Source of the DNA: an uncultured Clostridia bacterium
Lineage (GTDB): Bacteria; Bacillota; Clostridia; Christensenellales; CAG-138
NCBI GenBank assembly: GCA_947168855.1
Contig: CAMVNO010000003.1
Span: 155,474 to 219,473, forward strand
Direction: 5' to 3'
DNA: 64,000 bases
Shown: positions 29,670-41,990 of the stretch, one piece after another
Layout: each line of letters begins with the position of its first letter
Numbering within the stretch: the stretch's first letter is position 1
Made by a program: the position numbers and the translations under genes
Notes under the pieces: model-generated
Databases searched by the model: none
The model's input: the letters and a program-made list of their open reading frames with translations, nothing else
What the model was told of the DNA's origin: nothing

Positions 29670-29707
29670 AAAAACGCCCTGCACCGTTCTGATGCAGGGC
29701 GTTTTTT
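29670..29707. terminator. Bidirectional terminator closing the phosphonate operon and the dipeptidase gene
   Basis: aaaaacgccctgca-ccgttctga-tgcagggcgtttttt. Confidence 0.8.
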
Positions 29708-29711
29708 CTTT

Positions 29712-30224
29712 TCAGTTGTTTTTCGGAGCGGCGGAACGGACGAGTCTGCCGAGGATCGTCTCCGGACGAACGACGCCTACCTGCGGATAGCGGCTGTCCT
29801 TGCTCTCGGCAATGTTGTCGCCGATCACGATATACTCTCCGTCCGCAAGCGTGATCTCGCGGTCCAGAAGACCGGCGAATCCGAATGCGCCTTCCCGATA
29901 AAGGGGCGTCGGCGTTCCGTTGACAAGAAGCGTTCCGTCCGCGATCACGACCGTATCCCCGGGACCTGCCGCGATCCGCTTGATCAGCACGGTATCGAAT
30001 CCCTCGCAGCGGAAAGCGATCACATCGCCTGTGCGGTACTCCTGCACGCACTTCTCCAGCAGAACGAGCTGCAGAGGATGGTACGTCGGCATCATGGATT
30101 TGCCCCGGATCAGGACGAACTGATACCAGTATGCGGAGACATACCAGCAGAGACAAACGATCAACAGGATCGCCGCAAGCAGCGGGATCGCTTTTTTCCA
30201 ATTGATTTTGCGCGGATCCTTCAA
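29712..30224 (-). CDS. lepB: Signal peptidase I (S26)
   Basis: N-terminal TM, GKSMMPTY (catalytic Ser box) and GDNIAESKDSR box. It is the last gene of the operon. Confidence 0.85.
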   Translation of the reverse strand: MKDPRKINWKKAIPLLAAILLIVCLCWYVSAYWYQFVLIRGKSMMPTYHPLQLVLLEKCVQEYRTGDVIAFRCEGFDTVLIKRIAAGPGDTVVIADGTLLVNGTPTPLYREGAFGFAGLLDREITLADGEYIVIGDNIAESKDSRYPQVGVVRPETILGRLVRSAAPKNN

Positions 30225-30228
30225 GGCG

Positions 30229-31353
30229 TTATGACAGCGTTCCGAGGTACGCCATGAAATTCTGCTTGTTCTCCAAAGCGGTGGTCGTCGGTCTTCCGAG
30301 GTTCTCGCGCGCGCCGATGGAGCACTTGACCTCGATCAGGCTCAGCGCATTTCTCCGCTTCGCCGCCTCCAGCTCGGAATCCAGCGCTTCAACACTGTCC
30401 ACGCATACGGCGTACGGGTATCCGCATGCCTTGGCGACGCCGACCAGATCGATCTGTCCGGCAACGGTCGGCATGCCTCCGACCGTTTCATGCGCGCCGT
30501 TGTTGATCACGACATGAATGAGATTCTTCGGCTTGTTTGCGCCCAGAACCGCCATGGAGCCCATGTGCATCAACACGGCGCCGTCGCCGTCGATGCACCA
30601 GATCCGCTGATCCGGCTTGTTGACGGCTACGCCCAACGCGATGGAGCTGCTGTGCCCCATCGAGCCGACGGTCAGGAAATCGTATTTATGGCTCTGCCCG
30701 TTCGAAACGCGGGTCTCAAACAGCTCGCGGGACGCTTTTCCCGTGGTGCTGATGATCGGGTCCTCGCCGCTCGCCTTTACAATGTGCTGAATGATCTCCT
30801 CCCGCAGCATGGGGTGATCGTTTTTGTACGTGACCTTTCCGTCATACGTCAGGGCATTCTTTCTGACGACGAACGCGACGTCCTTTCCTTCAAGAAGAAT
30901 CGCGCGGAAACGGTCCATGGCAGCGGAGAGCGCCTCTTCGGTCGTTTCCTTGTCGATGATGAAGGTGCGGACGTCCATATCCTCCAGAAGTTTTACCGTG
31001 ACCTCGCCCTGATAGATGTGCTGGGGCTCGTCGTGAACGCCCGGCTCACCGCGCCAGCCGACGATAAAGATCATCGGGATGGCGTAGACCTTGTCGCTGA
31101 GAAGGCTTGCGAGCGGATTGATGATGTTGCCCTCGCCGCTGTTCTGCATGTAGACAACGGGGACCTTTCCGGTTGCGAGATGATACCCCGCGGCGAGCGC
31201 CGCGCAGTTGCCTTCGTTTGCGGCGATGACATGATGCCGGGGATCGATCCCGTACGTTGCCATCAGGCAGTTGCAGAGCGCTTTCAGCTGGCTGTCCGGA
31301 ACGCCGGTATAGAAATCGGCGCCGATGATGTTCATGAGACTTTCAACTTTCAT
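30229..31353 (-). CDS. ppd: Phosphonopyruvate decarboxylase (TPP-dependent)
   Basis: 374 aa with ..ADFYTGVPDSQLK.. and the TPP-binding motif CIDGDGAVLMHMG..NNGAHETVGG. This is the size and architecture of AepY/Ppd. Confidence 0.88.
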   Translation of the reverse strand: MKVESLMNIIGADFYTGVPDSQLKALCNCLMATYGIDPRHHVIAANEGNCAALAAGYHLATGKVPVVYMQNSGEGNIINPLASLLSDKVYAIPMIFIVGWRGEPGVHDEPQHIYQGEVTVKLLEDMDVRTFIIDKETTEEALSAAMDRFRAILLEGKDVAFVVRKNALTYDGKVTYKNDHPMLREEIIQHIVKASGEDPIISTTGKASRELFETRVSNGQSHKYDFLTVGSMGHSSSIALGVAVNKPDQRIWCIDGDGAVLMHMGSMAVLGANKPKNLIHVVINNGAHETVGGMPTVAGQIDLVGVAKACGYPYAVCVDSVEALDSELEAAKRRNALSLIEVKCSIGARENLGRPTTTALENKQNFMAYLGTLS

Positions 31354-31357
31354 GTTC

Positions 31358-32455
31358 TTACCTCAGAATGGAATGATAAAGCGTATCGATGTCTTCCTCG
31401 CTGAGCCGGATCGGGTAATTCTTCAGCCTGACCGGATTCACCGAGCCGCAAAGGATCGCGTAGTCTTCCGGCGCCGCCTGCGGAACGGGCAGGGCGAGCT
31501 TATCAAAGAGCGCGTTCAGCTTGTCCGCGGCTGCTTCCGGGCAATCGCAACCCATCGCAAGCGCGATCTTTTGAAGCGCGTCCGTAAGATACTGTTTGCC
31601 CCGCGGATCAATGCAGGCGTCCGTATGCCGGATCGTCCACGGGAGCAGCACCCGGTTGCACAGAAACGCGGCGTGCCCGTGCGCGCAGCCGTACAGGCTG
31701 GTCAGCTTGTAGCACATGGCGTGCCCGGCTGTCGTCTGCGTGATGTTGATCGCCTTGCCGGCGGTGTTGGCGGCAAGAAGCATGTTCCTGCGTCCCTCTT
31801 CCGTATTCGCAAGGTAACCGTCCATATGGGCGAGGATCGTGCGGATCGCGTCAAAGCTGTAGGTCTGGCTCTCCTCGGTGCTGTTCACCGACCAGAGGGA
31901 TTCCATGGCGTGGCAGAAAGCGTCCATCATGGTGGATTTTTTCTGGTATTCCGGCAGCGTCTTCAGAAGACCGCTGTCCAGAAAGACGGCAGCGGGAATA
32001 CAGCTGAGATCCGCAACGGACTGCTTGACGCCCTGATAATAGATGACCGCAAAGCGCGTTGCTTCCGAACCGGTTCCCGCCGTGGTGGGGACGGCAAGGA
32101 AGGGGATGTCGTTCGGAACGATCGTCTGCTCGAGATAGTTCCGCTCGGGATCCATGTCGGAGTACAGCTTGATGCACTTTGCCACGTCCATCGCAGACCC
32201 GCCGCCGACCGCAACGATGGCGCTGCATCCCTCGGCGTGAAATCTCCGAACGCCGTCGACCACGGATTCATACTGCGGATTCGGCGTAAAGTCCGTAAAG
32301 AGGCTGACGCCGATCCGCGGTCCGAGCGTGAGAAAATGGCGGACGATGTCGTGCTGCTCCAGAAATTTGTCGCAAACAAGCATCAGCTTTGCTGCGCCGG
32401 AGCTTAAAAGCCAATCGTCAAGCCCCGCGTAATCGGTGATGATTCTCTGGTCCAT
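31358..32455 (-). CDS. Group III iron-containing alcohol dehydrogenase, probable phosphonoacetaldehyde reductase
   Basis: Fe-ADH motifs GGGSAMDVAK and PTTAGTGSE, plus His-rich metal site residues (HAMES.., AHGHA). It sits between ppm and ppd. Confidence 0.7.
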   Translation of the reverse strand: MDQRIITDYAGLDDWLLSSGAAKLMLVCDKFLEQHDIVRHFLTLGPRIGVSLFTDFTPNPQYESVVDGVRRFHAEGCSAIVAVGGGSAMDVAKCIKLYSDMDPERNYLEQTIVPNDIPFLAVPTTAGTGSEATRFAVIYYQGVKQSVADLSCIPAAVFLDSGLLKTLPEYQKKSTMMDAFCHAMESLWSVNSTEESQTYSFDAIRTILAHMDGYLANTEEGRRNMLLAANTAGKAINITQTTAGHAMCYKLTSLYGCAHGHAAFLCNRVLLPWTIRHTDACIDPRGKQYLTDALQKIALAMGCDCPEAAADKLNALFDKLALPVPQAAPEDYAILCGSVNPVRLKNYPIRLSEEDIDTLYHSILR

Positions 32456-32461
32456 GGGGGC

Positions 32462-34471
32462 TTACATCTCCTCCGGAATCAGGCGAATAATCTCCTTGAA
32501 CGGCATGAGAATGCTGTCGCATTCCTCCGCCCTGTGGTTTTCGAGGATCATTCGGGCGGCCTTCTGGATGGCGGGCACCTGCGCGCGCATCAGCTGATTG
32601 GCGTAGATGATGATGTTTGCGCCGATTTCTTTCCATTCCTCTTCGCGGACCGAGTTGAAGCTGGTCGGCACCAGTACGATCGGCGTGGTTTTGTTTTCCG
32701 CGCGGAATTTGCGGATGAATTCGATGATTTCGGACGGATCCTTTTTCCGGCTGTGGATCATGATGGCGTCGGCGCCGGCTTCGACAAAGGCGAAGGCGCG
32801 GGTCAGCGCATCCTCCATGCCGCGCTCCAGGATCAGGCTTTCGATTCTGGCGCAGATCATGAACTCTTTGGTTCGCTGTGCTTTCTTGGCGGCGCGGATC
32901 TTCTCGCTGAAATGCTCAATGCTGTCCTGCGTCTGCACGACCTCCGTACCGAAAAGCGAGTTCTTCTTGAGACCGGTCTTGTCCTCGATGATGACCATGC
33001 TGACGCCGAGCCGCTCCAGGGAACGGACGGTATACACGAAATGCTCCGTTTTTCCGCCGGTATCGCCGTCGAAGATGATCGGCTTTGTCGTGACTTCCGT
33101 AATGTCCTCGATGGTGCGGAAGCGGGAGGTCATGTCCACAAGCTCGATATCCGGCTTGCCTTTTGCCGTGCTGTCGCACAGGGAGGAGATCCACATGGCG
33201 TCGAATTGATGCGCGCCGCCGTCCTGATAGGAGATCGTGTTCTCAACGACGAGTCCGGTGAGACCGTCATGCGCTTCCATAGCCGTGATCAGTCCCTTTG
33301 CATCCAGCATTCTTCTGAGCCTTCCGCGGCGGACGTCCGGCATGGACAGGTTTGCGCGCGTACGGTTCTCCAGCTCCTCAAAACGGTCGTCCTTCGAATA
33401 CGGATACTCGACCAGCTTTCCGCCGTAGGACGCCAGAACAGCCGCAGCCTCGTCTCTCACCGGCTTCTGGAATCCGGTGCACCAGTCGTCGCCGTGCACC
33501 AGGATCGCCGGGTGATACGTTTCCAGATTCTCCCGATAGGACAGCGTTTTCTGTTCCACGACCTTGTATACGCCCGCAATGCTTTCCAGCATGGTTTTCC
33601 GGTCGGCATAGCCGACGAGCGGGAAGCGCTTGTAGGAAGCGACCGCCTCGTCGGAAAGAACGCCGATCATCAGACGGCCGAGCCGCTGCGCCTTCTTGAT
33701 GATGGCGATATGCCCGCCGTGCAGGATGTCGGTGGAGAAGCACATATAGACCAGGCGATCTTCCACCTCTTTGAGCTTGGCGGAAACAACGGCAAGATCT
33801 TCCTGATTGTCGATCTCCGCGCAGAGCAGATTCTGCACGTCCAGCGCCGCAATATCCGCGCGGCCTTCCAGCACGTTCAGCGCGTTTTCCGCATAGACCT
33901 TGTCGTTTCCGCTTTCGCAGAAGGCGGAGATCTGATCCAGCCAGAGCATCCAGCTTTCCCTGGTCAGCTTATACAGCGCCTGCGCCGCCATCGCGTCGTT
34001 ATACACGTCGACGCCGACCCGCAGGACCTTGCCGCCGCACACCTGCGCCTTGAAATCCTTTTCGGGAAGGGGCAGGGTGGAGGAGACCGTCATGCAGGAG
34101 CCGGGGAACGCCATGACCTGATCCAGCACCTCGTTTTCGAAAACAAGGTCTCCGTGCAGAAGCAGGATATCGTCCTCGAGATACGCTTTTGCACAGTAGA
34201 TGCTGTAGATATAGTTGGTCTCCGCGTAGCGCGGATTCTTGACGAAGGTATAGTGGAGCGGCAGTCCGAGGCTGAGACAGTAGTTCACAAGAACCGTGTC
34301 GAACAAACCGGTGGTCATAACGACCTCTTCGATCCCCGCTTCCGCCAGCTGGCGAAGCTGACGCGACAGGATCGTTTCCTTCGGATTCAGTTCCGTCATG
34401 CATTTCGGATGTTCGGAGGTCAGCGCGCCCATGCGGGAGCCGAGGCCGGAATTCAGAATAAGAGCTTTCAT
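32462..34471 (-). CDS. Tri-domain LicC-like nucleotidyltransferase / HIGH-motif cytidylyltransferase / phosphoenolpyruvate mutase
   Basis: The N-terminal domain has LILNSGLGSRMG. The middle domain has CFSTDILHGGH (HxGH). The C-terminal domain carries the PepM-diagnostic EDK-X5-NS (EDKTGLKKNS, nt 32957-32986). I prefer the start at 34471 (GAGGA upstream). The track ORF extends to 34495. Confidence 0.9.
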   Translation of the reverse strand: MKALILNSGLGSRMGALTSEHPKCMTELNPKETILSRQLRQLAEAGIEEVVMTTGLFDTVLVNYCLSLGLPLHYTFVKNPRYAETNYIYSIYCAKAYLEDDILLLHGDLVFENEVLDQVMAFPGSCMTVSSTLPLPEKDFKAQVCGGKVLRVGVDVYNDAMAAQALYKLTRESWMLWLDQISAFCESGNDKVYAENALNVLEGRADIAALDVQNLLCAEIDNQEDLAVVSAKLKEVEDRLVYMCFSTDILHGGHIAIIKKAQRLGRLMIGVLSDEAVASYKRFPLVGYADRKTMLESIAGVYKVVEQKTLSYRENLETYHPAILVHGDDWCTGFQKPVRDEAAAVLASYGGKLVEYPYSKDDRFEELENRTRANLSMPDVRRGRLRRMLDAKGLITAMEAHDGLTGLVVENTISYQDGGAHQFDAMWISSLCDSTAKGKPDIELVDMTSRFRTIEDITEVTTKPIIFDGDTGGKTEHFVYTVRSLERLGVSMVIIEDKTGLKKNSLFGTEVVQTQDSIEHFSEKIRAAKKAQRTKEFMICARIESLILERGMEDALTRAFAFVEAGADAIMIHSRKKDPSEIIEFIRKFRAENKTTPIVLVPTSFNSVREEEWKEIGANIIIYANQLMRAQVPAIQKAARMILENHRAEECDSILMPFKEIIRLIPEEM

Positions 34472-34491
34472 TGCATTCCTCACAAGAACCG

Positions 34492-34794
34492 TCAATCGTT
34501 GTTCTCTTCCGGAGCCGTTTCCGTCGTGACCGTTGCCGTTGCTTCCGGAGCCGCTTCGATCTCGTCGCTTTCAACCTCTTTGTTGCGATTCTCGTCGATT
34601 TTGAGCTTCTTCTTTGCTCTGCGGAAATAGATGCCGATCACGGCGCCGACGGCGATCACCAAGCCGGAGATGGCGGTGATCAGGGCGCCGCCGACGGACG
34701 GGTCGATATACGCCGAACCGTCGATGCCGAAGAAGAGCATTGCGCAGAACGCGACCGCTGCGCAGAGAGCCAGATGTTTGAACAGTTTTTTCAT
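34492..34794 (-). CDS. Small membrane protein with an acidic C-terminal tail (100 aa)
   Basis: Starts MKKLFKHLALCAAVAFCAMLFF (signal peptide or TM), followed by AYIDPSVGGALITAISGLVIAVGAVIGIYF (TM), a KKKLK segment and an acidic tail. It is tightly packed between operon genes. Confidence 0.5.
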   Translation of the reverse strand: MKKLFKHLALCAAVAFCAMLFFGIDGSAYIDPSVGGALITAISGLVIAVGAVIGIYFRRAKKKLKIDENRNKEVESDEIEAAPEATATVTTETAPEENND

Positions 34795-34798
34795 GGTT

Positions 34799-36676
34799 TT
34801 ATTTCTCCTTTTTTTCTGCAATTTTATTCCGGATTGCCTGGAAAATATAGTTTCCGCCGACCTCGGCGGCATGGTCCAAGTGATAAAGGTATTCATGCGC
34901 AAGCGCATTGATCTGTTCCCGATACACGTCCTTTTTCGCAAGAAGATCCGCAACCGCTTCCGCCGTTCTGTCGAGCTGATCCGGATCGATGCTGACGCCG
35001 AGCTTGTCCCGGAGGCTGAGATTGATGGATTCGGTCTTGATCTCTTCGTAATCGGGGTTCATGACCTTCATGGGCGTGTTGATAAACAGGACGGGGCGCA
35101 GCGTGGTAAACGCGTATTCCCAGCTGATGCCGGACCAGTCGGTAATCAGCAGATCCGCCTCCATGACGGGATTGTCGGAGGTGAAATCCGTCTGGATCAT
35201 GATGCCGCTGCCCTCATATTTGGCTTTCAGCGCGTTCATATACTCGCGCTTCAGGCGCACCTCCTGCGGATGCGGACGCACGACCACATCATACCCGTGT
35301 CCGGTCAGCTGGTCCAGCAGTGTTTCGAGACAGCTGTCGATGAGATTGTCCTTCTGCCAGGAGGGCGCGATCAGGATCTTGGGCTTTGCATGCGCCTCGT
35401 GCGCCGCGGACCGGAACTCCGCACGCAGAGCGTCGATCAGCGGGTAGCCGACCTCGACGAGCGTGCGCGGCTTCAGCTGATAGACGCGCTCGAACTCCAG
35501 CTCTTCCGCCTTCTGATGCTTGCCGGCAAGGAAGATCGTGTCAAAATGATCGGTGCAGCCCTTGCGCATCAGCATGGCGTGATTGTTCATGTCGTGCTGC
35601 ACAAAGATGTATTCGACGTCGTCCCGGATATAGCTCTTTTTGATATGGTAGTTGTTGAGATCCGGCATCGTCATCATGACCACGTCGGCGTCCATCTTCA
35701 TCATCAGCGTGATCAGACGGTTTTCGCCGATATAGTAGGCGCGGATGCGCGGGTTCTGCTCTGCCGTTTCAAAGATGCGGTCGTTTGGATCGCTGGTGAC
35801 GTAGTGGACCGTCAGATTCGTTTTTGCGAGGATGTACTCGATGTAATCCTTGAAATACTTGTAGAACCCGCTGCGCTCGGAATACACGACGAGATGCTTG
35901 TTTACGACGGAGAAGAAGCGCTTGTAGTCCGCCTTTTCTCTCTGCTTGTCCTCACGGGAGACTTTGCTCTTCAGCCCGTCCAGCTCCGCCAGCTCTTTTT
36001 TGCTCGCCGCCAGCTCTTCGTAGTCCACGTATTTCTTCGGCGGCATCATGACGTTCAAAAGAAGCTGCTGGAGGATCGTGAAGAGATTGCTTGCGATCCA
36101 GTATAAGCCGACGCCCAACGGTACGAACGCACCGAGGAAAAGCGAGATCGCGATGGATACGCCGCTCGTCAGCCATTGATTCGCCTTGGACTGTTCGCGC
36201 TGCAGGGGGTTCAGCTCGTTCTGCGCGAGACCGAGGATCAGCGCCGAAAGCCCCGCAGCCAACGGCATCAGAAGGCTGATCCCGCCCTTTTCAAAGGGGG
36301 TCACGGCAAGCACGCTGTCGCTTCCTTCAAGCCACGATCTGACGGCGCCGATGACGCCGAGCAACAGAATGACCTGAATAAACAGCGGCAGGGTCCCCAG
36401 AAGAGGCCTGTAACCGTTTTGTTTATAGATGGTCCGCGTTTCCTCGCCGATGGCGTCCTTGTCCCCGTAGTATTTGACCTTCATGCGGTTGAGGGCGGGC
36501 ATGATGGAGACCATCTTGAGACTGTTTTTGTTTGTCCACAGGCTGACCGGAAACACGATCACCTTGGTCAAAAGCGTAAAGAGCAGGATGGCGACGGTAT
36601 AATTCCCCACCCATTGATAGCACAGCCGCATCAGTACGGCAAATACGTTTCCGATGGCTGTCATGACTGCCTGCAT
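34799..36676 (-). CDS. Fusion of a YidC/Oxa1-family insertase domain and a CDP-glycerol glycerophosphotransferase (TagB/TagF)-like domain
   Basis: Residues 1-212 carry GNYTVAILLFTLLTKVIVFPV...LPLFIQVILL...GVGLYWIASNLFTILQQ (YidC hallmarks). Residues ~255-625 carry VVVRPHPQE and LLITDWSGISWEYAF (TagF-family HP and TDYSS-like motifs). It is a single uninterrupted ORF. Confidence 0.8.
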   Translation of the reverse strand: MQAVMTAIGNVFAVLMRLCYQWVGNYTVAILLFTLLTKVIVFPVSLWTNKNSLKMVSIMPALNRMKVKYYGDKDAIGEETRTIYKQNGYRPLLGTLPLFIQVILLLGVIGAVRSWLEGSDSVLAVTPFEKGGISLLMPLAAGLSALILGLAQNELNPLQREQSKANQWLTSGVSIAISLFLGAFVPLGVGLYWIASNLFTILQQLLLNVMMPPKKYVDYEELAASKKELAELDGLKSKVSREDKQREKADYKRFFSVVNKHLVVYSERSGFYKYFKDYIEYILAKTNLTVHYVTSDPNDRIFETAEQNPRIRAYYIGENRLITLMMKMDADVVMMTMPDLNNYHIKKSYIRDDVEYIFVQHDMNNHAMLMRKGCTDHFDTIFLAGKHQKAEELEFERVYQLKPRTLVEVGYPLIDALRAEFRSAAHEAHAKPKILIAPSWQKDNLIDSCLETLLDQLTGHGYDVVVRPHPQEVRLKREYMNALKAKYEGSGIMIQTDFTSDNPVMEADLLITDWSGISWEYAFTTLRPVLFINTPMKVMNPDYEEIKTESINLSLRDKLGVSIDPDQLDRTAEAVADLLAKKDVYREQINALAHEYLYHLDHAAEVGGNYIFQAIRNKIAEKKEK

Positions 36677-36715: not shown

Positions 36716-38827
36716 TCAGTCTTTGTTGATCTCGATCGATGTGAAAGAGATGGTTCGCGTTCTCTTCCCGACGGAGATGGTCATTTCGTTCGGATCGATC
36801 TCGTCAAACTCAAACGAAAGGACCAGAACGTTGGTGCCCTTGAATACGGTCGGAATGTCCAGCGTGAAATGGATCCCGTTGTCCTGGATGTTCTTTGAAT
36901 TCGCGCTGTCGTTCTCAAAGGCCGGAATGTTGTTGGCATATGCGATAAAGCTGGTGGAGTTGTACAGCTTTCCTACGCCGATATCCACCTGAAGCGTTCC
37001 CGTTTTGGGAAGGTTTTCGATCGGGATCTCGATCTGCGCATGCGGTCCGTACAGACGGGTCAGCCAGCCGGATGTGTTGCCGAAGCCGTCCGTGCAGTAT
37101 TTGTTTGCTGTGGCGTCCATATCGAACGTCAGCTTGGTGCCGAGCTTGTACGGCGTATCTTTTCCTTCGGTGTCGATATAGGTCTCAACCAGCTCGAGAG
37201 AACCCGGGTCGCCTGCGTGGGAGAACGAAACATATTCCTTAATGGCGACCTTGGAACGGTTGGTCGTGTTATAGAAGAAATGCCGCTCGCGGACCTGATC
37301 CTCGGTCAGGCTGAACAGATCCTCGCTGTAGACGCCGGTCTTTCCGCTCTTGCCCGCAATGCCGTACAGAACTCCCGACAGATCAAACATGGAAGCGGGA
37401 ACGTCGGTTTCGGTCATCGCGCCCTTGGCGCCGGGCGCCTTATAGAGGAACATCATGTGTTCGCCGATATGCAGATCCCCGTGGTCGGCGGTCAGAATGA
37501 TCAGCGAGGAATCATACATGCCCTTTGCCTTCAGGTCGTCCAGAAGCGATTTCACAATCGCAAAGCTGCCTTCCACCTGTTCCTCGAGAGAGGTTTTCTT
37601 TTTGTTGTGCAAACCGTCGCTTGTCAGCGTGTATGCGGAATGCGCGCCCTTCAGCAGGTAGAAACGGAAGGCTTTATTGCAGGACGTGTTGACGGTGTAT
37701 CCGTTGCTCGAAAGGAAATTCGTATGGAACAGCGCGTCGTCGGGCGCGTATGCCGTTTTGTCCGACGCGACCCCGGCAAAAGCCTTCGCTTCGTCAAACT
37801 CCGAGGTGGAAAGCCAGAAGAACCGCTTCAGAAGATGCGGCGCAAAGCGGAAAGCGGAAAGCTTATACAGCTTCGCTCCCAGAATTCCGTACGAACCGAC
37901 TTTTTCTGCGCCGTTGTCAATGTTTTCAACATAATCCGCCGCGCCGCTGCCGTAAAAATCGGATTCCGAGAAGCAGCGCACGTCCCAGCCGCTCTTGTTC
38001 AGAGCGGACAGAGGGTTCTCCTGCGACCAGATGGTGTCGACATACTGTGAATACGTTGTGTCCCTCGTAAAGGGCTTTCCGGTGAGCAGGGACGGAACCG
38101 CGATGATGGTTCTCGCGCCGCTTGACATCATGTTGGTGTAATGGACAAAGCCGTCCAGATTCTCGACATAATCCGGATGATTGTCGAGGTATTCCATGAA
38201 ATAATCTTCGTCCATCGTATCCAGAGCGATGATGAGGACATTTTCTTCTTTGCCCAGATCATACATGCCTTCCGTCGTAACGGTCAGATAGGCCTTGTCC
38301 GCCGGCTTGTAGTTTATGATGTCCACGGTCAGCGCCGGCAGCTGGATCACGGTGAGGAAAAGGGAGGCAAACAGGATCGCTTTTTTCCACTTGTCCTTCA
38401 GGAAGATGGAAACGACAAAGGGCAGGGCGATGCAGACCGCCCAGACCAGTGTATCGATCACGGCGTATCCCTTATAATCGGACCACTTGATTTCCGTTCC
38501 GTCCAGAACGCCGTTGCCGTAGCTGATGTTGATGAACGTGCCCTGCAGATACATTCCCAGGAAAATGCCGAACAAAAGCTTGACATAGATCGAGTATGCC
38601 TTCTCCGGCAGCAGCATGCCTGCAAGGAACAGGACTGCGAATACGATCAGCGATCCGATGATCGTTACGAGCAGGGTATCGCTGATGCGGAACCAGAATT
38701 CCCCGGTATTTTCAAGGAACATGGATAGGGGACCGTAGAAAAAGGCCGTAAATACGCCGAAAAAAACAAGCGCCAGCAACACGGGGATTCTCTTTTTTCT
38801 TTCTTTCATTCTGACTCTTTCCTCCAC
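36716..38827 (-). CDS. LtaS-like sulfatase-family (alkaline-phosphatase superfamily) membrane transferase
   Basis: About five N-terminal TM helices precede an extracytoplasmic sulfatase fold (VLIIALDTMDEDYF ... LKGAHSAY ... ILTADHGD) and a ~150-aa extra C-terminal domain. An alternative start MKERKK lies at 38809. Confidence 0.78.
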   Translation of the reverse strand: MEERVRMKERKKRIPVLLALVFFGVFTAFFYGPLSMFLENTGEFWFRISDTLLVTIIGSLIVFAVLFLAGMLLPEKAYSIYVKLLFGIFLGMYLQGTFINISYGNGVLDGTEIKWSDYKGYAVIDTLVWAVCIALPFVVSIFLKDKWKKAILFASLFLTVIQLPALTVDIINYKPADKAYLTVTTEGMYDLGKEENVLIIALDTMDEDYFMEYLDNHPDYVENLDGFVHYTNMMSSGARTIIAVPSLLTGKPFTRDTTYSQYVDTIWSQENPLSALNKSGWDVRCFSESDFYGSGAADYVENIDNGAEKVGSYGILGAKLYKLSAFRFAPHLLKRFFWLSTSEFDEAKAFAGVASDKTAYAPDDALFHTNFLSSNGYTVNTSCNKAFRFYLLKGAHSAYTLTSDGLHNKKKTSLEEQVEGSFAIVKSLLDDLKAKGMYDSSLIILTADHGDLHIGEHMMFLYKAPGAKGAMTETDVPASMFDLSGVLYGIAGKSGKTGVYSEDLFSLTEDQVRERHFFYNTTNRSKVAIKEYVSFSHAGDPGSLELVETYIDTEGKDTPYKLGTKLTFDMDATANKYCTDGFGNTSGWLTRLYGPHAQIEIPIENLPKTGTLQVDIGVGKLYNSTSFIAYANNIPAFENDSANSKNIQDNGIHFTLDIPTVFKGTNVLVLSFEFDEIDPNEMTISVGKRTRTISFTSIEINKD

Positions 38828-38876: not shown

Positions 38877-38905
38877 ATTATAGCACTGTCGATTCAATTA
38901 ATCAA
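38877..38905 (-). promoter_or_regulatory. Candidate sigma-A promoter of the phosphonate operon
   Basis: On the minus strand: TTGATT, 17-nt spacer, TATAAT, inside a markedly AT-rich ~100-nt stretch. Confidence 0.5.
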
Positions 38906-39074: not shown

Positions 39075-40511
39075 TCAGAGGTTGCATCTGATCAGCGCTT
39101 TGTAGTAGTCGACTGCGCCGGGCAGACTGTATGTGTCGAGATACTCGTTGAGCCCGTGCATGCCCTTCATCTGCGCGGGTCCGTATACGACCGGCGAGAA
39201 GCGCACACAGGTATCGCAGATCCTCTGATAGTGTCTCGCGTCCGTCCCGCCCGTCATAACGTACGGGATACACGGAAGATTCGGGAAGACCTCGCTGATC
39301 ACCCGCTCAACGAGCCTGTACGCTTCGGTGCGGGTATCGACCGGCTCGCAGAAGTCGTACGCGTCGATCACCCGAACGTCCAGATCGTATTTCTTTGCAT
39401 ACCGTTCGATCGCGGCATTGCTCTCCGCCATGCCCTGATGCGGGATGTAGCGCAGATTCAGCGTCAGCGTCGCCTCCTGCGGGAGCACATTGCAGCCGTC
39501 GGAACCGGTCTGCATCGTCGGCGCGACGGTCGTTCTGAGAAGCGCCGCCGCCTGCGGGGAGATGGAGGGCATCAGCTTGACCAACAGCGGTTTGAACAGC
39601 CACAGATTGCCGAACAGCAGCCGCATCCAGAACGGCCCGTACGGCGCCATCGCGGAAAACATTTCCTTCGCCTGCCGGTTCATCGCAGAGCGCATCGGGC
39701 TGTGTTTTGAGAGGTCGACCATAAACTTCGACAGCCGCACGATCGGGGAGTTTTTCGGCGGATAGCTCGAATGCCCGCCGTTCGATTTCGCGGAGATCAG
39801 AAGATTGCCCTGTCCCTTTTCAAGCACGCCGATCATGGCGTAGTTGCCCTTGACGCCAGCCATCGGCTCGGTCACGATCGAGCCGCCTTCGTCATTGACC
39901 AGATACGGCTTCACGCCGCGGCGCTCCAGCTCCTGCACAAGCTTCGGGCATCCGGGACCGCCGACCTCCTCGGTGTTCGAGGTCGAAAGCCAGACGTCCT
40001 GCTCCGGCACGTATCCTGCTTTCAAAAGCTCCTCGACCGCCTGAAAGAACGCCATCACCGAGCACTTTGTGTCGGCGCTGCCGCGTCCCCAGATCCTGCC
40101 GTTCTCAATGTCTCCGGAAAACGGCGGATGCTCCCATTGCCCCTCGGCAGGAACGACGTCCTGATGCCCCATCAGAACGAGCGGGCGCGCATCCGACGTT
40201 CCCTTCCAATGAAAGAGCAGGCTTCCGTCGATCTCGATCTTTTCGAGATTCGCGTGCACGAGCGGGAACAGCTCTTCGAGGATCCTGTGGAAGCCGAGGA
40301 ACTTCTCACGCTGTGTTTCGCCTTTTTTCGAAACGGTTTCGTACCGCACCATTTTCGCAAGCGTTTCGGCATACGCACGCTCGCGCGCCGGATCGCGCTC
40401 CGGCTCCCACGCGGAGGTCTTTTTCGGCGTGAGAAGCGTCCGGATCGCGGCGATCGGCACGAGCAGCAACAATACGCCGAGCAATCCCAGAACGATGTAC
40501 AGAGCGATCAT
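39075..40511 (-). CDS. Membrane-anchored M20-family metallopeptidase (carboxypeptidase-like)
   Basis: The N-terminal TM (MIALYIVLGLLGVLLLLVPIAAI) is followed by LVLMGHQDVVPA...GRGSADTK (M20 metal and catalytic motifs). I chose the start at 40511. The track extension is Arg/Cys-rich and overlaps the upstream gene. Confidence 0.85.
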   Translation of the reverse strand: MIALYIVLGLLGVLLLLVPIAAIRTLLTPKKTSAWEPERDPARERAYAETLAKMVRYETVSKKGETQREKFLGFHRILEELFPLVHANLEKIEIDGSLLFHWKGTSDARPLVLMGHQDVVPAEGQWEHPPFSGDIENGRIWGRGSADTKCSVMAFFQAVEELLKAGYVPEQDVWLSTSNTEEVGGPGCPKLVQELERRGVKPYLVNDEGGSIVTEPMAGVKGNYAMIGVLEKGQGNLLISAKSNGGHSSYPPKNSPIVRLSKFMVDLSKHSPMRSAMNRQAKEMFSAMAPYGPFWMRLLFGNLWLFKPLLVKLMPSISPQAAALLRTTVAPTMQTGSDGCNVLPQEATLTLNLRYIPHQGMAESNAAIERYAKKYDLDVRVIDAYDFCEPVDTRTEAYRLVERVISEVFPNLPCIPYVMTGGTDARHYQRICDTCVRFSPVVYGPAQMKGMHGLNEYLDTYSLPGAVDYYKALIRCNL

Positions 40512-41197
40512 AGACCGCCACCTGCTTTCTGCTGCTTGCGGAAGGCGAGATAGGCAAGAACGATCGCCAGCGCACCGCTCGGAATGACCATCATGCTGGT
40601 CGAGCCGATCAGCGACGGCACAAAGATGAACAGAAGCGACATACAGGCGAGCACGATCAGCGCAACCGTGCGGTTCATGCGGTAATACTTGCATGCCATC
40701 GCGCCGAACAGCGCCGGAACGACGTTTTCAAACGCGGGCTGCAGCGTCGGCGACTGCAGCACAGGCTGCAGCGGGATCATCAGAAGAACGCCCACGGCAA
40801 GCACCAGGATCGTAACGAGCGAACTGGTTGCGATCGAAAGCGTCGAGATGATCTCGTTCTCCGGCGTCCCGGACCTGACGCCCACGATGTCGCGCGCGTT
40901 GATCGCGCAGGGGATCTTCATATTGATGAGATTGCCGGTGATGAACGCGAGGTAGCTGCCGCCCGCGCCGAGCATCGGCACATAGATCAGGTATTCGACG
41001 ATCCCGCTGACGAGATACACGAGCCCGACGCCGAGGAACGCCTTTGCGGCGGCGGCGAGGTTCGGCATTGCGCCGAGAAACAGACCGATTGCAAAGGGCG
41101 CCGCCAACAGCAGGATCAGAACAAGGACGGTCAGCCAGCGACCGAGCTTATGCGTTGCGGAAAGGTATGCTTCGTATTGCGTGTTTTTCTGTTCCAT
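40508..41197 (-). CDS. Uncharacterised polytopic membrane protein
   Basis: 229 aa with ~6 predicted TM helices. Its stop overlaps the M20 start (ATGA). Confidence 0.6.
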   Translation of the reverse strand: MEQKNTQYEAYLSATHKLGRWLTVLVLILLLAAPFAIGLFLGAMPNLAAAAKAFLGVGLVYLVSGIVEYLIYVPMLGAGGSYLAFITGNLINMKIPCAINARDIVGVRSGTPENEIISTLSIATSSLVTILVLAVGVLLMIPLQPVLQSPTLQPAFENVVPALFGAMACKYYRMNRTVALIVLACMSLLFIFVPSLIGSTSMMVIPSGALAIVLAYLAFRKQQKAGGGL

Positions 41198-41207
41198 AGC
41201 GCACCTC

Positions 41208-41990
41208 CTAACCGATCTTTCCGAGGAAGATCGCGGCGGTCATGGCGATCAGCATGCTGCCTGCGATCGAAAAGCTGTCGATCCAGTCCGCCTTTGCCTT
41301 TTCGCGGATGAGCAGAAAACCCGCCATCGCCAGCGCGGACACGCAGGCGACCGCCAGCGGCAGCCAGCTGCCCGTGAAGGTAAAGAGCCCGTTTGCGGAT
41401 ACGATCTGCCCGATATAGCTTGCTATGTACGCCGAAACCAATCCGATGAACATGGCGGTCATTGCCGTGTCGCCGAACGCTTTCAGATTCAGCTTTTTCT
41501 TTTTTCCGTTCGTTTCAACGGTCTCGGGCTTCGGCAGCACAAGCTTGGTCGAATACGCCTTGCCGTTGAAAATCATCAGTACCATGCCCCAGATGATGCC
41601 GAAGCTCATCAGCAGCGCGATCGTGGAAAAGCTCGACGCCGTCATCGCCGACGCTGACAGCTTTTCCATGCCGACCGCCTCCGCCGCCGCTTCCGCGACC
41701 TGTGTTTCATAGTGCAGCGCGCCGATGACCGAAAGCCGCAGCCACGGCCACGGTGTGCCGAGACTGCCGGACAGCGCGATAACGCCGAGCAGGATCCCCA
41801 CGCTCGGCAGCACGGCAAACGTTGCGCTTGCGATGATGACGCGCTTCATCTTTGAGACGTTGATTCCGATCGCCTTGCCCGCGCGATACGCACGTACGGC
41901 AAAGACCATGCAGATGATCGCAACAAGCAGCACAATGCCGCCGCAGATCAGATACATGACCGGGCTGTTCAGCTTTGCCAAGACTTCCAT
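41208..41990 (-). CDS. Uncharacterised polytopic membrane protein
   Basis: 260 aa with multiple TM helices. It is the first gene of the three-gene unit, with a 10-nt gap to the next gene. Confidence 0.6.
   Translation of the reverse strand: MEVLAKLNSPVMYLICGGIVLLVAIICMVFAVRAYRAGKAIGINVSKMKRVIIASATFAVLPSVGILLGVIALSGSLGTPWPWLRLSVIGALHYETQVAEAAAEAVGMEKLSASAMTASSFSTIALLMSFGIIWGMVLMIFNGKAYSTKLVLPKPETVETNGKKKKLNLKAFGDTAMTAMFIGLVSAYIASYIGQIVSANGLFTFTGSWLPLAVACVSALAMAGFLLIREKAKADWIDSFSIAGSMLIAMTAAIFLGKIG

Follow-up and report, generated by a model that had tools for sequence, protein, structure and literature searches.

The stretch of DNA considered here, hereafter the window, comprises 64,000 nucleotides from an uncultured Clostridia bacterium (contig CAMVNO010000003.1) and carries a gene whose product joins, on a single polypeptide, an insertase domain of the YidC/Oxa1 family and a transferase domain related to TagF and TagB. 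This YidC-TagF fusion is most likely the hub of a conserved envelope-decoration module that adds phosphonate or phospho-amino-alcohol groups. The role of its YidC domain can be assigned more tentatively. The reading to which we lean, without granting it an even chance, is that of a specialised paralogue which would insert or retain a microprotein encoded by the adjacent gene, thereby tying the cytoplasmic transferase to an ectoenzyme.

The fusion is encoded by one uninterrupted open reading frame (ORF), as an initial annotation of the sequence had described it, and all the motifs quoted in that annotation are present. A GGGAGG ribosome-binding site lies 5' of its ATG. The assignment of the N-terminal part to YidC, which the initial annotation expected to fall if the profile thresholds were missed, holds: Pfam 60KD_IMP (PF02096) matches residues 26-208 with 105.8 bits for a gathering score of 35, and NCBIfam TIGR03592 (yidC_oxa1_cterm) reaches 96.1 for a cut-off of 84.3. 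All 19 YidC equivalog models among the NCBIfam matches listed remain far under their cut-offs, the best one (NF002357) giving 77 bits for 479. The core is made of an amphipathic N-terminal helix, a first transmembrane helix (TM1) carrying K38 (codon 36563-36565), a cytoplasmic C1 hairpin and TM2-TM5. In a family profile aligned over the whole core with its five TMs, K38 stands opposite R366 of Escherichia coli YidC and R72 of Bacillus halodurans YidC2, which bears out the lysine that had been noticed in place of the groove arginine.

The AlphaFold2 (AF2) model of the fusion, built with 21 homologues as input, has a mean predicted local distance difference test score (pLDDT) of 85.8 and a predicted template-modelling score (pTM) of 0.64, and displays YidC-core helices, a helical linker and an alpha/beta C-terminal domain. 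The core helices (26-40/42-68, 73-86, 91-116, 132-155, 164-184 and 187-210) correspond to a five-TM core with a hairpin between TM1 and TM2. With Foldseek, the N-terminal part superposes on the YidC structures 6al2 and 3wo6/3wo7 at 3.2-3.9 Å over about 210 columns, with a target-normalised TM-score of 0.70 for 3wo6. Residues 213-256, which had been called a coiled-coil linker, are helical in the model, and the pLDDT of the linker drops to 63 at residues 231-240.

The C-terminal part matches Pfam Glyphos_transf (PF04464) over residues 258-532 (45.9 bits for a threshold of 22.1), covering positions 11-292 of the 367 of the profile. Its top Foldseek match in the PDB is TagF (3l7k, chain 3l7k_D; E 9.8e-10), and TarL (8va1) and a capsule polymerase (8a0c) are also listed; the TagF-like nature proposed in the initial annotation is thus retained. 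An hhalign comparison with a canonical Glyphos_transf protein, taken from one of the related loci (L004), lines up APSW with APTF, RPHP with RDHN and TDWS with SDYS, and places H469 of RPHP opposite the histidine of RDHN in the canonical protein.

The fusion is widespread. A homology search retrieved more than 120 clusters with 51-100% identity, each carrying both PF02096 and PF04464, the architecture that the initial annotation had suggested looking for, and a scan of one genome per species found a relative of the fusion in at least 542 species genomes. The carriers are mostly gut and rumen Oscillospiraceae, Lachnospiraceae, Christensenellaceae and Erysipelotrichaceae, and include cultured bacteria (Lachnospira eligens, Angelakisella massiliensis, Anaerotruncus sp. 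G3 and Lachnospiraceae bacterium COE1). The gene neighbourhoods discussed below were compared in 80 related loci, 41 of which have at least 5 kb on both sides and are referred to as well-flanked.

Both domains of the fusion are intact and under purifying selection. In an alignment of 21 diverse members, K38 is invariant, as are the polar residues Q152, N153, Q159, E161 and Q162, located where TM3 ends and in the loop joining it to TM4, and the position of K38 is also occupied by lysine in four distant fusions (P0121, P0126, P0136 and P0153). The invariant residues of the TagF-like domain include H361, A437-P438-S439 (with the motif APSW likewise invariant), R467-P-H469-P and T512-D-W-S515. The mean identity to the window protein amounts to 48% for the YidC domain (35 of its 212 columns, or 17%, being invariant), 56% for the TagF-like domain and 28% for the LtaS-like partner described below.

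In the window, the fusion is the second gene of a seven-gene operon on the minus strand. This operon encodes, in order, an LtaS/EptA-like protein, the fusion, a microprotein, a triple fusion of NTP_transf_3, CTP_transf_like and phosphoenolpyruvate (PEP) mutase domains, an iron-dependent alcohol dehydrogenase (Fe-ADH), a phosphonopyruvate decarboxylase (Ppd) and a type I signal peptidase (SPase). As the initial annotation had pointed out, it holds no flippase or ATP-binding cassette (ABC) exporter, and none is found among the annotated flanking genes either. The LtaS-like partner, the microprotein and the SPase did not figure in that annotation.

The ribosome-binding site of the microprotein gene (AAGGAG) sits inside the 3' end of the fusion ORF. 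In the window microprotein, MKK and a hydrophobic segment lead to a predicted SPase I site, GSA↓YIDPS, after which come a Gly/Ala-rich TM, the basic stretch RRAKKK and a conserved tail IDENRNKEVESD. The family consensus has the same layout, running from MKK through about 18 hydrophobic residues, the site G/S/A-x-A↓Y-I-D-P-S-V, a Gly/Ala-rich TM (IQAvAGxxIAxGA) and R-x-AKKK to a near-invariant tail, IDENxNKEVESD. About 66 of 75 members have alanine at position -1 of the cleavage site, and 59 of 66 have G, S or A at position -3; on these residues, the site is predicted to be a canonical SPase I site. The only invariant across distant microproteins is A↓Y-x-x-P, the hallmark of the mature N-terminus being Y-x-[DE]-P. 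Distant members (in L082, L085 and L086) retain it and lack the tail, which is cytoplasmic and typical of the YidC-fused clade. The microprotein matches no Pfam or NCBIfam family; a homology search nevertheless gathers 4419 clusters of this family of about 90 aa, all of them unannotated small proteins. By tblastn, it is found in 74 of the 80 loci, and in 37 of the 41 well-flanked ones.

M13 procoat is cut by leader peptidase after its insertion. It is also the paradigm of the YidC-only substrates, which are small, carry one or two TMs and a short loop and are recognised post-translationally (PMC7618853). The microprotein of the module has the layout of such substrates: it is small, its flanks are basic, the segment to be translocated is short and the TMs number one or two. 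The SPase encoded by the last gene of the operon retains intact Ser and Lys boxes (GKSMMPT, KRIAAGPGD, GDNIAESKDSR). Homologues occur in 44 of the 80 loci (24 of the 41 well-flanked ones) and, in 23 of these 44, the SPase gene comes right behind the microprotein gene, starting 270-540 nt past the fusion. Of the 41 well-flanked loci, 19 have the full set of microprotein, LtaS-like protein and SPase.

The LtaS/EptA-like protein has about five N-terminal TM helices followed by an ectodomain of the alkaline-phosphatase/sulfatase superfamily. Its Pfam Sulfatase score (28.6 bits) is barely over the gathering threshold (25). A profile made from 19 partners matches the extracellular domain of LtaS (eLtaS, 2w5r; E 3e-8), as well as the LtaP primase and YejM, with a weak match to MCR-1. 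The partners share only about 22-43% identity with each other. D197, H390, D442 and H443 do not vary among them, and T234 hardly does; the protein thus appears, from its residues, to keep the surroundings of the Thr nucleophile and the Asp/His ligands of the metal that characterise the LtaS/EptA class. An additional C-terminal region of about 160 aa is not conserved. The gene is found by tblastn in 51 of the 80 loci (28 of the 41 well-flanked ones).

The grouping of these functions is also visible in the variety of proteins that carry the TagF-like domain. An exhaustive search with this domain gave 415 representative clusters at E<=1e-30, which are of four kinds: YidC-fused proteins, larger fusions, proteins carrying a 2-TM anchor or a remnant of YidC TM1, and free-standing enzymes (about 380 aa, 30-40% identity). 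Among the larger fusions, P0121, P0130 and P0133 display the order Sulfatase-YidC-TagF, and P0126 and P0136 the order YidC-TagF-microprotein-5TM-Sulfatase, with the microprotein, recognisable by its embedded AYIDPSV and IDENxxKEVE motifs, fused directly to the N-terminus of the ectoenzyme. The largest polypeptides join all the parts of the module except the SPase. A role of the YidC domain mainly as insertase for the LtaS-like partner was considered and rejected, the partner being translated ahead of YidC in the Sulfatase-YidC-TagF fusions. The four-part fusions had suggested that the microprotein is an uncleaved hairpin with both ends in the cytoplasm; this idea was dropped, as the SPase site and the SPase gene make the cleavage of a polyprotein equally consistent.

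Other relatives separate the enzyme from the YidC domain. In locus L082, a microprotein and a TagF-like enzyme with a plain 2-TM anchor (P0147) are encoded with Ppd, a nucleotidyltransferase (NT), a cytidylyltransferase (CT)-PepM protein, Fe-ADH and the start of an LtaS-like protein. Locus L085 encodes a Sulfatase, CT-PepM, Ppd, Fe-ADH, a free TagF-like enzyme, a microprotein and, as a separate gene, a 224-aa YidC-like protein (PF02096, 71 bits). Locus L086 combines a microprotein and a TagF-like enzyme with a divergent multi-TM protein which is LtaS-like by motif alone, with no Pfam match. The broadest association is therefore the triad that the microprotein forms with the TagF-like and LtaS-like proteins. 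A large Clostridial clade has YidC in fused form, a separate gene encodes it at least once, and some distant relatives lack it. The clade of the TagF-like domain also occurs in the phosphonate operons of L082 and L085. As for the protein with only a TM1 remnant (P0150, 458 aa, in L083/L084), its N-terminus (FALFIKFVFF...MVKTQPRLN) resembles the beginning of a YidC domain; its context is unrelated, lacking the microprotein, the LtaS-like gene and any cassette, and it may be a decayed orphan of the fusion.

What the module transfers is suggested by the other genes of the operon. The PEP mutase (PepM) part of the triple fusion scores 395 bits with TIGR02320 for a cut-off of 319; its listed TTG start overlaps the stop codon of the microprotein gene, and an ATG at 34471 is the likelier start. 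The Fe-ADH gives 140 bits with the phosphonate-cluster model TIGR03405, second among its NCBIfam matches and under the cut-off of 423; its presumed reaction, proposed from the gene context, is the reduction of phosphonoacetaldehyde to 2-hydroxyethylphosphonate (HEP). PF01467-Ppm fusions are those of Fom1 type, which produce CMP-2-hydroxyethylphosphonate (CMP-HEP), and triple fusions of PF12804, PF01467 and Ppm make up 2.9% of Ppm enzymes (PMC6697681). With a Fom1-type PepM fusion, a Ppd and an Fe-ADH, we infer from the functions of these families that the window operon holds the enzyme set for CMP-HEP. The triple fusion also holds two different nucleotidyltransferase domains in one protein; a second activated substrate is one possibility.

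This set of genes is only one of several found beside the fusion. A PepM cassette occurs in 11 of the 41 well-flanked loci. Fourteen others carry a cassette named here NT-CobD-like, in which a nucleotidyltransferase is fused to a CobD-like phospho-amino-acid decarboxylase; three of these 14 also have LicC/LicA, a nucleotidyltransferase fused to a choline kinase, which is present alone in two more loci. No recognised cassette is found in the remaining 14. The PepM and CobD-like cassettes never co-occur. The cassette-less loci sit within wall-glycopolymer clusters, with genes encoding glycosyltransferases of families GT2 and GT4, a canonical glycosyltransferase (GT)-TagF polymerase (as in L004) or a Wzt ABC ATPase (as in L016, with GT4 genes). 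The precursor genes are therefore interchangeable cassettes around a constant core, so this core handles whichever small headgroup, activated by CDP or CMP, is made by the adjacent cassette.

Since the core is constant and the cassettes alternate, the TagF-like domain is probably, judging from gene content, a transferase of single headgroups rather than a polymerase. The context argues for donors other than CDP-glycerol and CDP-ribitol, namely CMP-HEP in the window and CDP-amino-alcohol or CDP-choline elsewhere. A poly(HEP) polymerase, the alternative that was considered, is unlikely as a general role because amino-alcohol and choline headgroups offer no free hydroxyl for extension; for the window itself, it is possible. 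In L. eligens (L066, 14081-17393), the genes downstream of the module encode an AMP-binding enzyme, a pyridoxal-phosphate-dependent decarboxylase of the Orn/DAP type and two ORFs of 74 and 166 aa; they might form a second, amino-acyl or amine, tailoring route acting on the same polymer.

The presence of the LtaS-like partner, of the procoat-like microprotein and of the SPase leads to a third reading of the YidC domain, besides the membrane anchor and the translocation through the groove that the initial annotation had envisaged: it would do ordinary YidC work on a dedicated client. According to the mechanism that we propose, PepM, Ppd, Fe-ADH and the Fom1-type cytidylyltransferase would first make CMP-HEP. 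The cytoplasmic TagF-like domain would then move the phosphonyl headgroup onto a hydroxyl of a membrane-bound acceptor with release of CMP, a chemistry that would be that of TagF with CDP-glycerol. The YidC domain would insert the microprotein as a hairpin, which the SPase of the operon would cut at A↓YIDPS, and would probably keep hold of it, giving a membrane complex that couples the transferase and the LtaS-like ectoenzyme. Finally, the ectoenzyme, with its putative Thr nucleophile and metal site, would pass the headgroup to an outer glycopolymer of the wall or of the membrane.

Several data weigh against this proposal. First, modules L082 and L086 have no YidC in the visible contig, which means that YidC is not indispensable for the pathway; their microproteins would need the housekeeping YidC, so that the need for a dedicated copy in the present module calls for an explanation. 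The separate YidC of L085 bears an asparagine at the groove position. About 40% of the well-flanked loci lack an SPase gene, and the SPase could have the LtaS-like protein as its target instead of the microprotein, the LtaS of Staphylococcus aureus being cleaved by SpsB. Since phmmer and profile searches of PDB sequences with the C-terminal domain matched no TagF or TarL, its link to TagF rests on Pfam, Foldseek and the hhalign comparison with L004. TagF reportedly has two conserved catalytic histidines, H444 and H584; only the second histidine of the family is aligned in the fusion, the invariant H361, candidate for the first, falling outside the region aligned by hhalign. Furthermore, the pTM of the model is only 0.64, and no paper describing the YidC-TagF architecture or such a system was found in the searchable literature.

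Two other roles of the YidC domain have to be weighed, both of which we consider unlikely. According to the first, the module relays headgroups through the membrane: the TagF-like domain loads a lipid of the inner leaflet, the YidC groove flips this lipid and the LtaS/EptA-like ectoenzyme moves the headgroup to an extracellular polymer. This relay and the insertion of a dedicated client are mutually compatible. LtaS, EptA/MCR-1 and OpgB take lipid headgroups as donors, and the profile of the partner reaches LtaS, YejM and MCR-1, with the Thr nucleophile and the metal ligands kept. The operon of the window encodes neither flippase nor ABC exporter; the family does not vary at the groove lysine or at the polar residues that close TM3 and line the loop towards TM4, and single-chain fusions of transferase, YidC and ectoenzyme fit sequential steps across the membrane. 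Purified E. coli YidC scrambles nitrobenzoxadiazole (NBD)-labelled phospholipids in vitro and B. subtilis MisCB scrambles in simulations (PMC11047089). Because the partner class uses lipid-linked donors and because E. coli YidC scrambles in vitro, the relay stays plausible. It is however weakened by the related modules devoid of YidC (L082 and L086). In addition, a Wzt ABC exporter is encoded nearby in L016, the relay leaves the conserved microprotein and the dedicated SPase unexplained, and we know of no lipid acceptor for a TagF-like enzyme of the fusion type. Scrambling in vitro, moreover, is general to insertases and does not prove a physiological role.

According to the second, which we find just as doubtful, the YidC fold merely holds the TagF-like enzyme at the membrane beside its partners and its groove has no function. 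Indeed, a plain 2-TM anchor is enough for close relatives that share 43-44% identity with the enzyme domain (P0147/L082), other proteins retain nothing of YidC but a TM1 remnant (P0150) or stand alone with a length of about 380 aa, and TagF itself is said to be a peripheral membrane protein. However, conservation of the YidC domain comes close to that of the catalytic domain and greatly exceeds that of the LtaS-like partner, there is no variation at K38 and at several polar positions, and the separate YidC-like gene of L085 cannot provide a covalent anchor; these three data weaken this view. A complete five-TM insertase core would also be unusually elaborate for anchoring.

It is very improbable that the fusion is simply the housekeeping YidC with an appended domain. 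NCBI labels the named members of the family "membrane protein insertase YidC", and a search covering the 64-kb window and, for the 80 loci, the 10 kb on either side of the fusion found no second YidC. However, the NCBIfam equivalog models for YidC all score far under their cut-offs, the operon is devoted to envelope decoration and does not correspond to the rnpA-yidC-jag context, the groove residue is Lys throughout where the canonical one is Arg, and one metagenome-assembled genome (MAG) has two copies of the fusion (L060 and L076). Furthermore, a 400-aa domain stands in place of the C-terminal tail, which is the ribosome-binding region in YidC2/Oxa1. Lastly, an artefact in which a frameshift would have merged two adjacent genes, a possibility raised in the initial annotation, is refuted, since hundreds of assemblies obtained independently show this one ORF, with 48-100% identity and a conserved linker.

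Some members of the family deserve separate mention. The MAG with two copies (JAKSQO01) carries them on different contigs; genes for the microprotein, the LtaS-like protein and the SPase accompany the copy in L076, and none of the three lies within the flanks of L060. Nine variants of 830-1081 aa (P0005, P0020, P0035, P0038, P0042, P0048, P0059, P0066 and P0072) possess, N-terminal to the YidC core, a signal-anchor and an extracytoplasmic domain (200-450 aa) that matches nothing in Pfam; this extension resembles the TM1+P1 layout of Gram-negative YidC and is not LtaS-like. Four loci labelled Paludibacteraceae, Saccharibacteria or Nanosyncoccaceae (L041, L054, L058 and L080) encode fusions 48-53% identical to the Clostridial ones; these odd labels could reflect binning contamination or horizontal transfer.

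The coordinates of the features of the operon are given in Table 1.

Table 1. Features of the fusion gene and of its operon (positions in the window; amino acid positions refer to the fusion protein)
Feature	Position	Strand	Basis or remarks
Strong bidirectional terminator-like hairpin closing the operon	29670..29706	.	16-bp stem, 8 GC pairs, then T-run
Type I signal peptidase (S26), last operon gene	29712..30224	-	Pfam Peptidase_S26, 95.9 bits
Phosphonopyruvate decarboxylase (Ppd)	30229..31353	-	TIGR03297, 464.6 bits for 312.5
Fe-dependent alcohol dehydrogenase	31358..32455	-	Pfam Fe-ADH
NTP_transf_3 (LicC/PntC-like) + CTP_transf_like (Fom1-type cytidylyltransferase) + PEP mutase, 677 aa	32462..34495	-	Pfam, TIGR02320
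Procoat-like microprotein, 100 aa	34495..34794	-	Start codon 4 nt past the fusion stop
YidC-TagF fusion ORF	34799..36676	-	625 aa + stop, ATG start, uninterrupted
TagF/TagB-like GT-B phospho(no)-headgroup transferase domain, aa 258-625	34802..35905	-	PF04464, Foldseek, hhalign
Helical linker, aa 213-257	35906..36040	-	AF2 helices 213-216, 219-237, 241-256
YidC/Oxa1 core, aa 1-212	36041..36676	-	Pfam, TIGR03592, profile alignment, fold match
LtaS/EptA-like ectoenzyme, 703 aa from GTG (alternative ATG 38809)	36716..38827	-	Pfam Sulfatase, profile match
Promoter-like site, TTGATT, 17-nt spacer, TATAAT, TG extension	38877..38905	-	Consensus match only

The genome of the window is that of a spore-forming member of Bacillota (PolC, RNase Y, GerA). 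The genes that immediately precede the operon on its own strand (39075-41990) encode an M20 peptidase, a 229-aa ORF without family match and a DUF5058 membrane protein, none of which is conserved beside the fusion in the 80 loci. Three long ORFs lie antisense to real genes on the plus strand (32534-34630, 698 aa; 34631-36106, 491 aa; 37040-38050, 336 aa); they are read as a by-product of coding sequence with about 55-58% GC and not as genes.

Proteins of the YidC/Oxa1 family are regarded as general insertases, and the module would offer the case of a paralogue hard-wired to an enzyme, with its own procoat-like client, signal peptidase and ectoenzyme. This module is encoded by at least 542 species, many of them abundant Clostridia of the gut and rumen, and probably puts phosphonate, phospho-amino-alcohol or phosphocholine groups onto the envelope; in other bacteria, such modifications shape recognition by the host immune system and resistance to cationic peptides. 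It seems improbable to us that the YidC-like groove is a dedicated conduit or scramblase conveying a lipid-linked phosphonate or phospho-amino-alcohol intermediate from the TagF-like loader to the ectoenzyme. If it were, the fusion would be the first natural protein of the Oxa1 superfamily recruited for the translocation of small molecules or lipids in a biosynthetic pathway, and would provide physiological evidence for lipid scrambling by insertases in vivo. Cultured carriers make testable both the physiological role of scrambling by insertases and the way in which extracytoplasmic phospho-headgroup decoration is supplied in Gram-positive bacteria.

Each domain of the fusion belongs to a known family, and the novelty lies in the joining of an insertase to an enzyme within a five-part module found to be undescribed in the searchable literature. 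With the YidC proteins of Gram-positive bacteria (SpoIIIJ/YidC2 of B. subtilis and YidC2 of B. halodurans, 3WO6/3WO7), the fusion shares the five-TM core, the C1 hairpin, the positive charge of TM1 in the groove and the N-out, C-in topology, as well as profile scores and fold. It differs from them by the lack of a lipoprotein signal peptide, by the invariant Lys in place of Arg, by a 400-aa enzyme in place of the C-terminal tail, by its location outside the housekeeping gene context and by its failure with the equivalog models. With the TagF and TarL polymerases and the TagB primase (PF04464; 3L7K, 8VA1), it shares a GT-B-like fold, the APxW, RxHP and TDxS motifs, which align, and the expected chemistry, in which a cytidine-nucleotide donor would give up a phosphoryl-type group to a hydroxyl and CMP would be released. 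Its sequence is however very diverged, the protein is integral to the membrane rather than peripheral, and the neighbouring genes would make CMP-HEP, CDP-amino-alcohol or CDP-choline and not CDP-glycerol or CDP-ribitol.

The partners of the fusion can likewise be compared with known proteins. The microprotein recalls M13 procoat and Pf3 coat and their insertion by YidC: it is a small pre-protein with a basic N-terminus, a short acidic exposed segment, a basic C-terminal anchor and an AXA-type site. Like M13 procoat, it goes together with a YidC module and an SPase I, an association known here from the genes. Unlike procoat, it is chromosomal, its gene lies in one operon with those of biosynthetic enzymes, and the insertase is fused to an enzyme. 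The ectoenzyme shares with LtaS, EptA (MCR-1) and OpgB about five TMs and an ectodomain, the Thr context and the Asp/His ligands; it differs in its unconserved additional C-terminal region of about 160 aa and in the low identity between partners.

The association of a cytoplasmic loader, a small membrane component and an ecto-transferase encoded together is found in the CsbB/GtcA/YfhO, ArnC/ArnEF/ArnT and DltABCD-DltX systems, and DltX is a precedent for a conserved microprotein partner. The logic is alike, whereas the protein families are unrelated: the module has no polyprenol-phosphate glycosyltransferase, GT-C or MBOAT protein, and no membership in these systems is claimed. The closest parallel for the precursor genes is the phosphonate tailoring by PntC/Fom1-LicD, as far as it is covered in the available passages of Rice et al. 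2019 (PMC6697681), with which the operon of the window has in common the fusion of PepM with PF12804 and PF01467 domains, Ppd and a target at the cell surface. These passages name LicD-like phosphotransferases or glycosyltransferases as acting in the step that follows cytidylyl activation, and glycerophosphotransferases, sulfatases and YidC are not mentioned in them (PMC6697681). Here, in contrast, the candidate transferase is TagF-like and comes with YidC, a microprotein, an LtaS-like protein and an SPase; the fusion is a candidate for the missing transferase after the activation of phosphonates by CMP.

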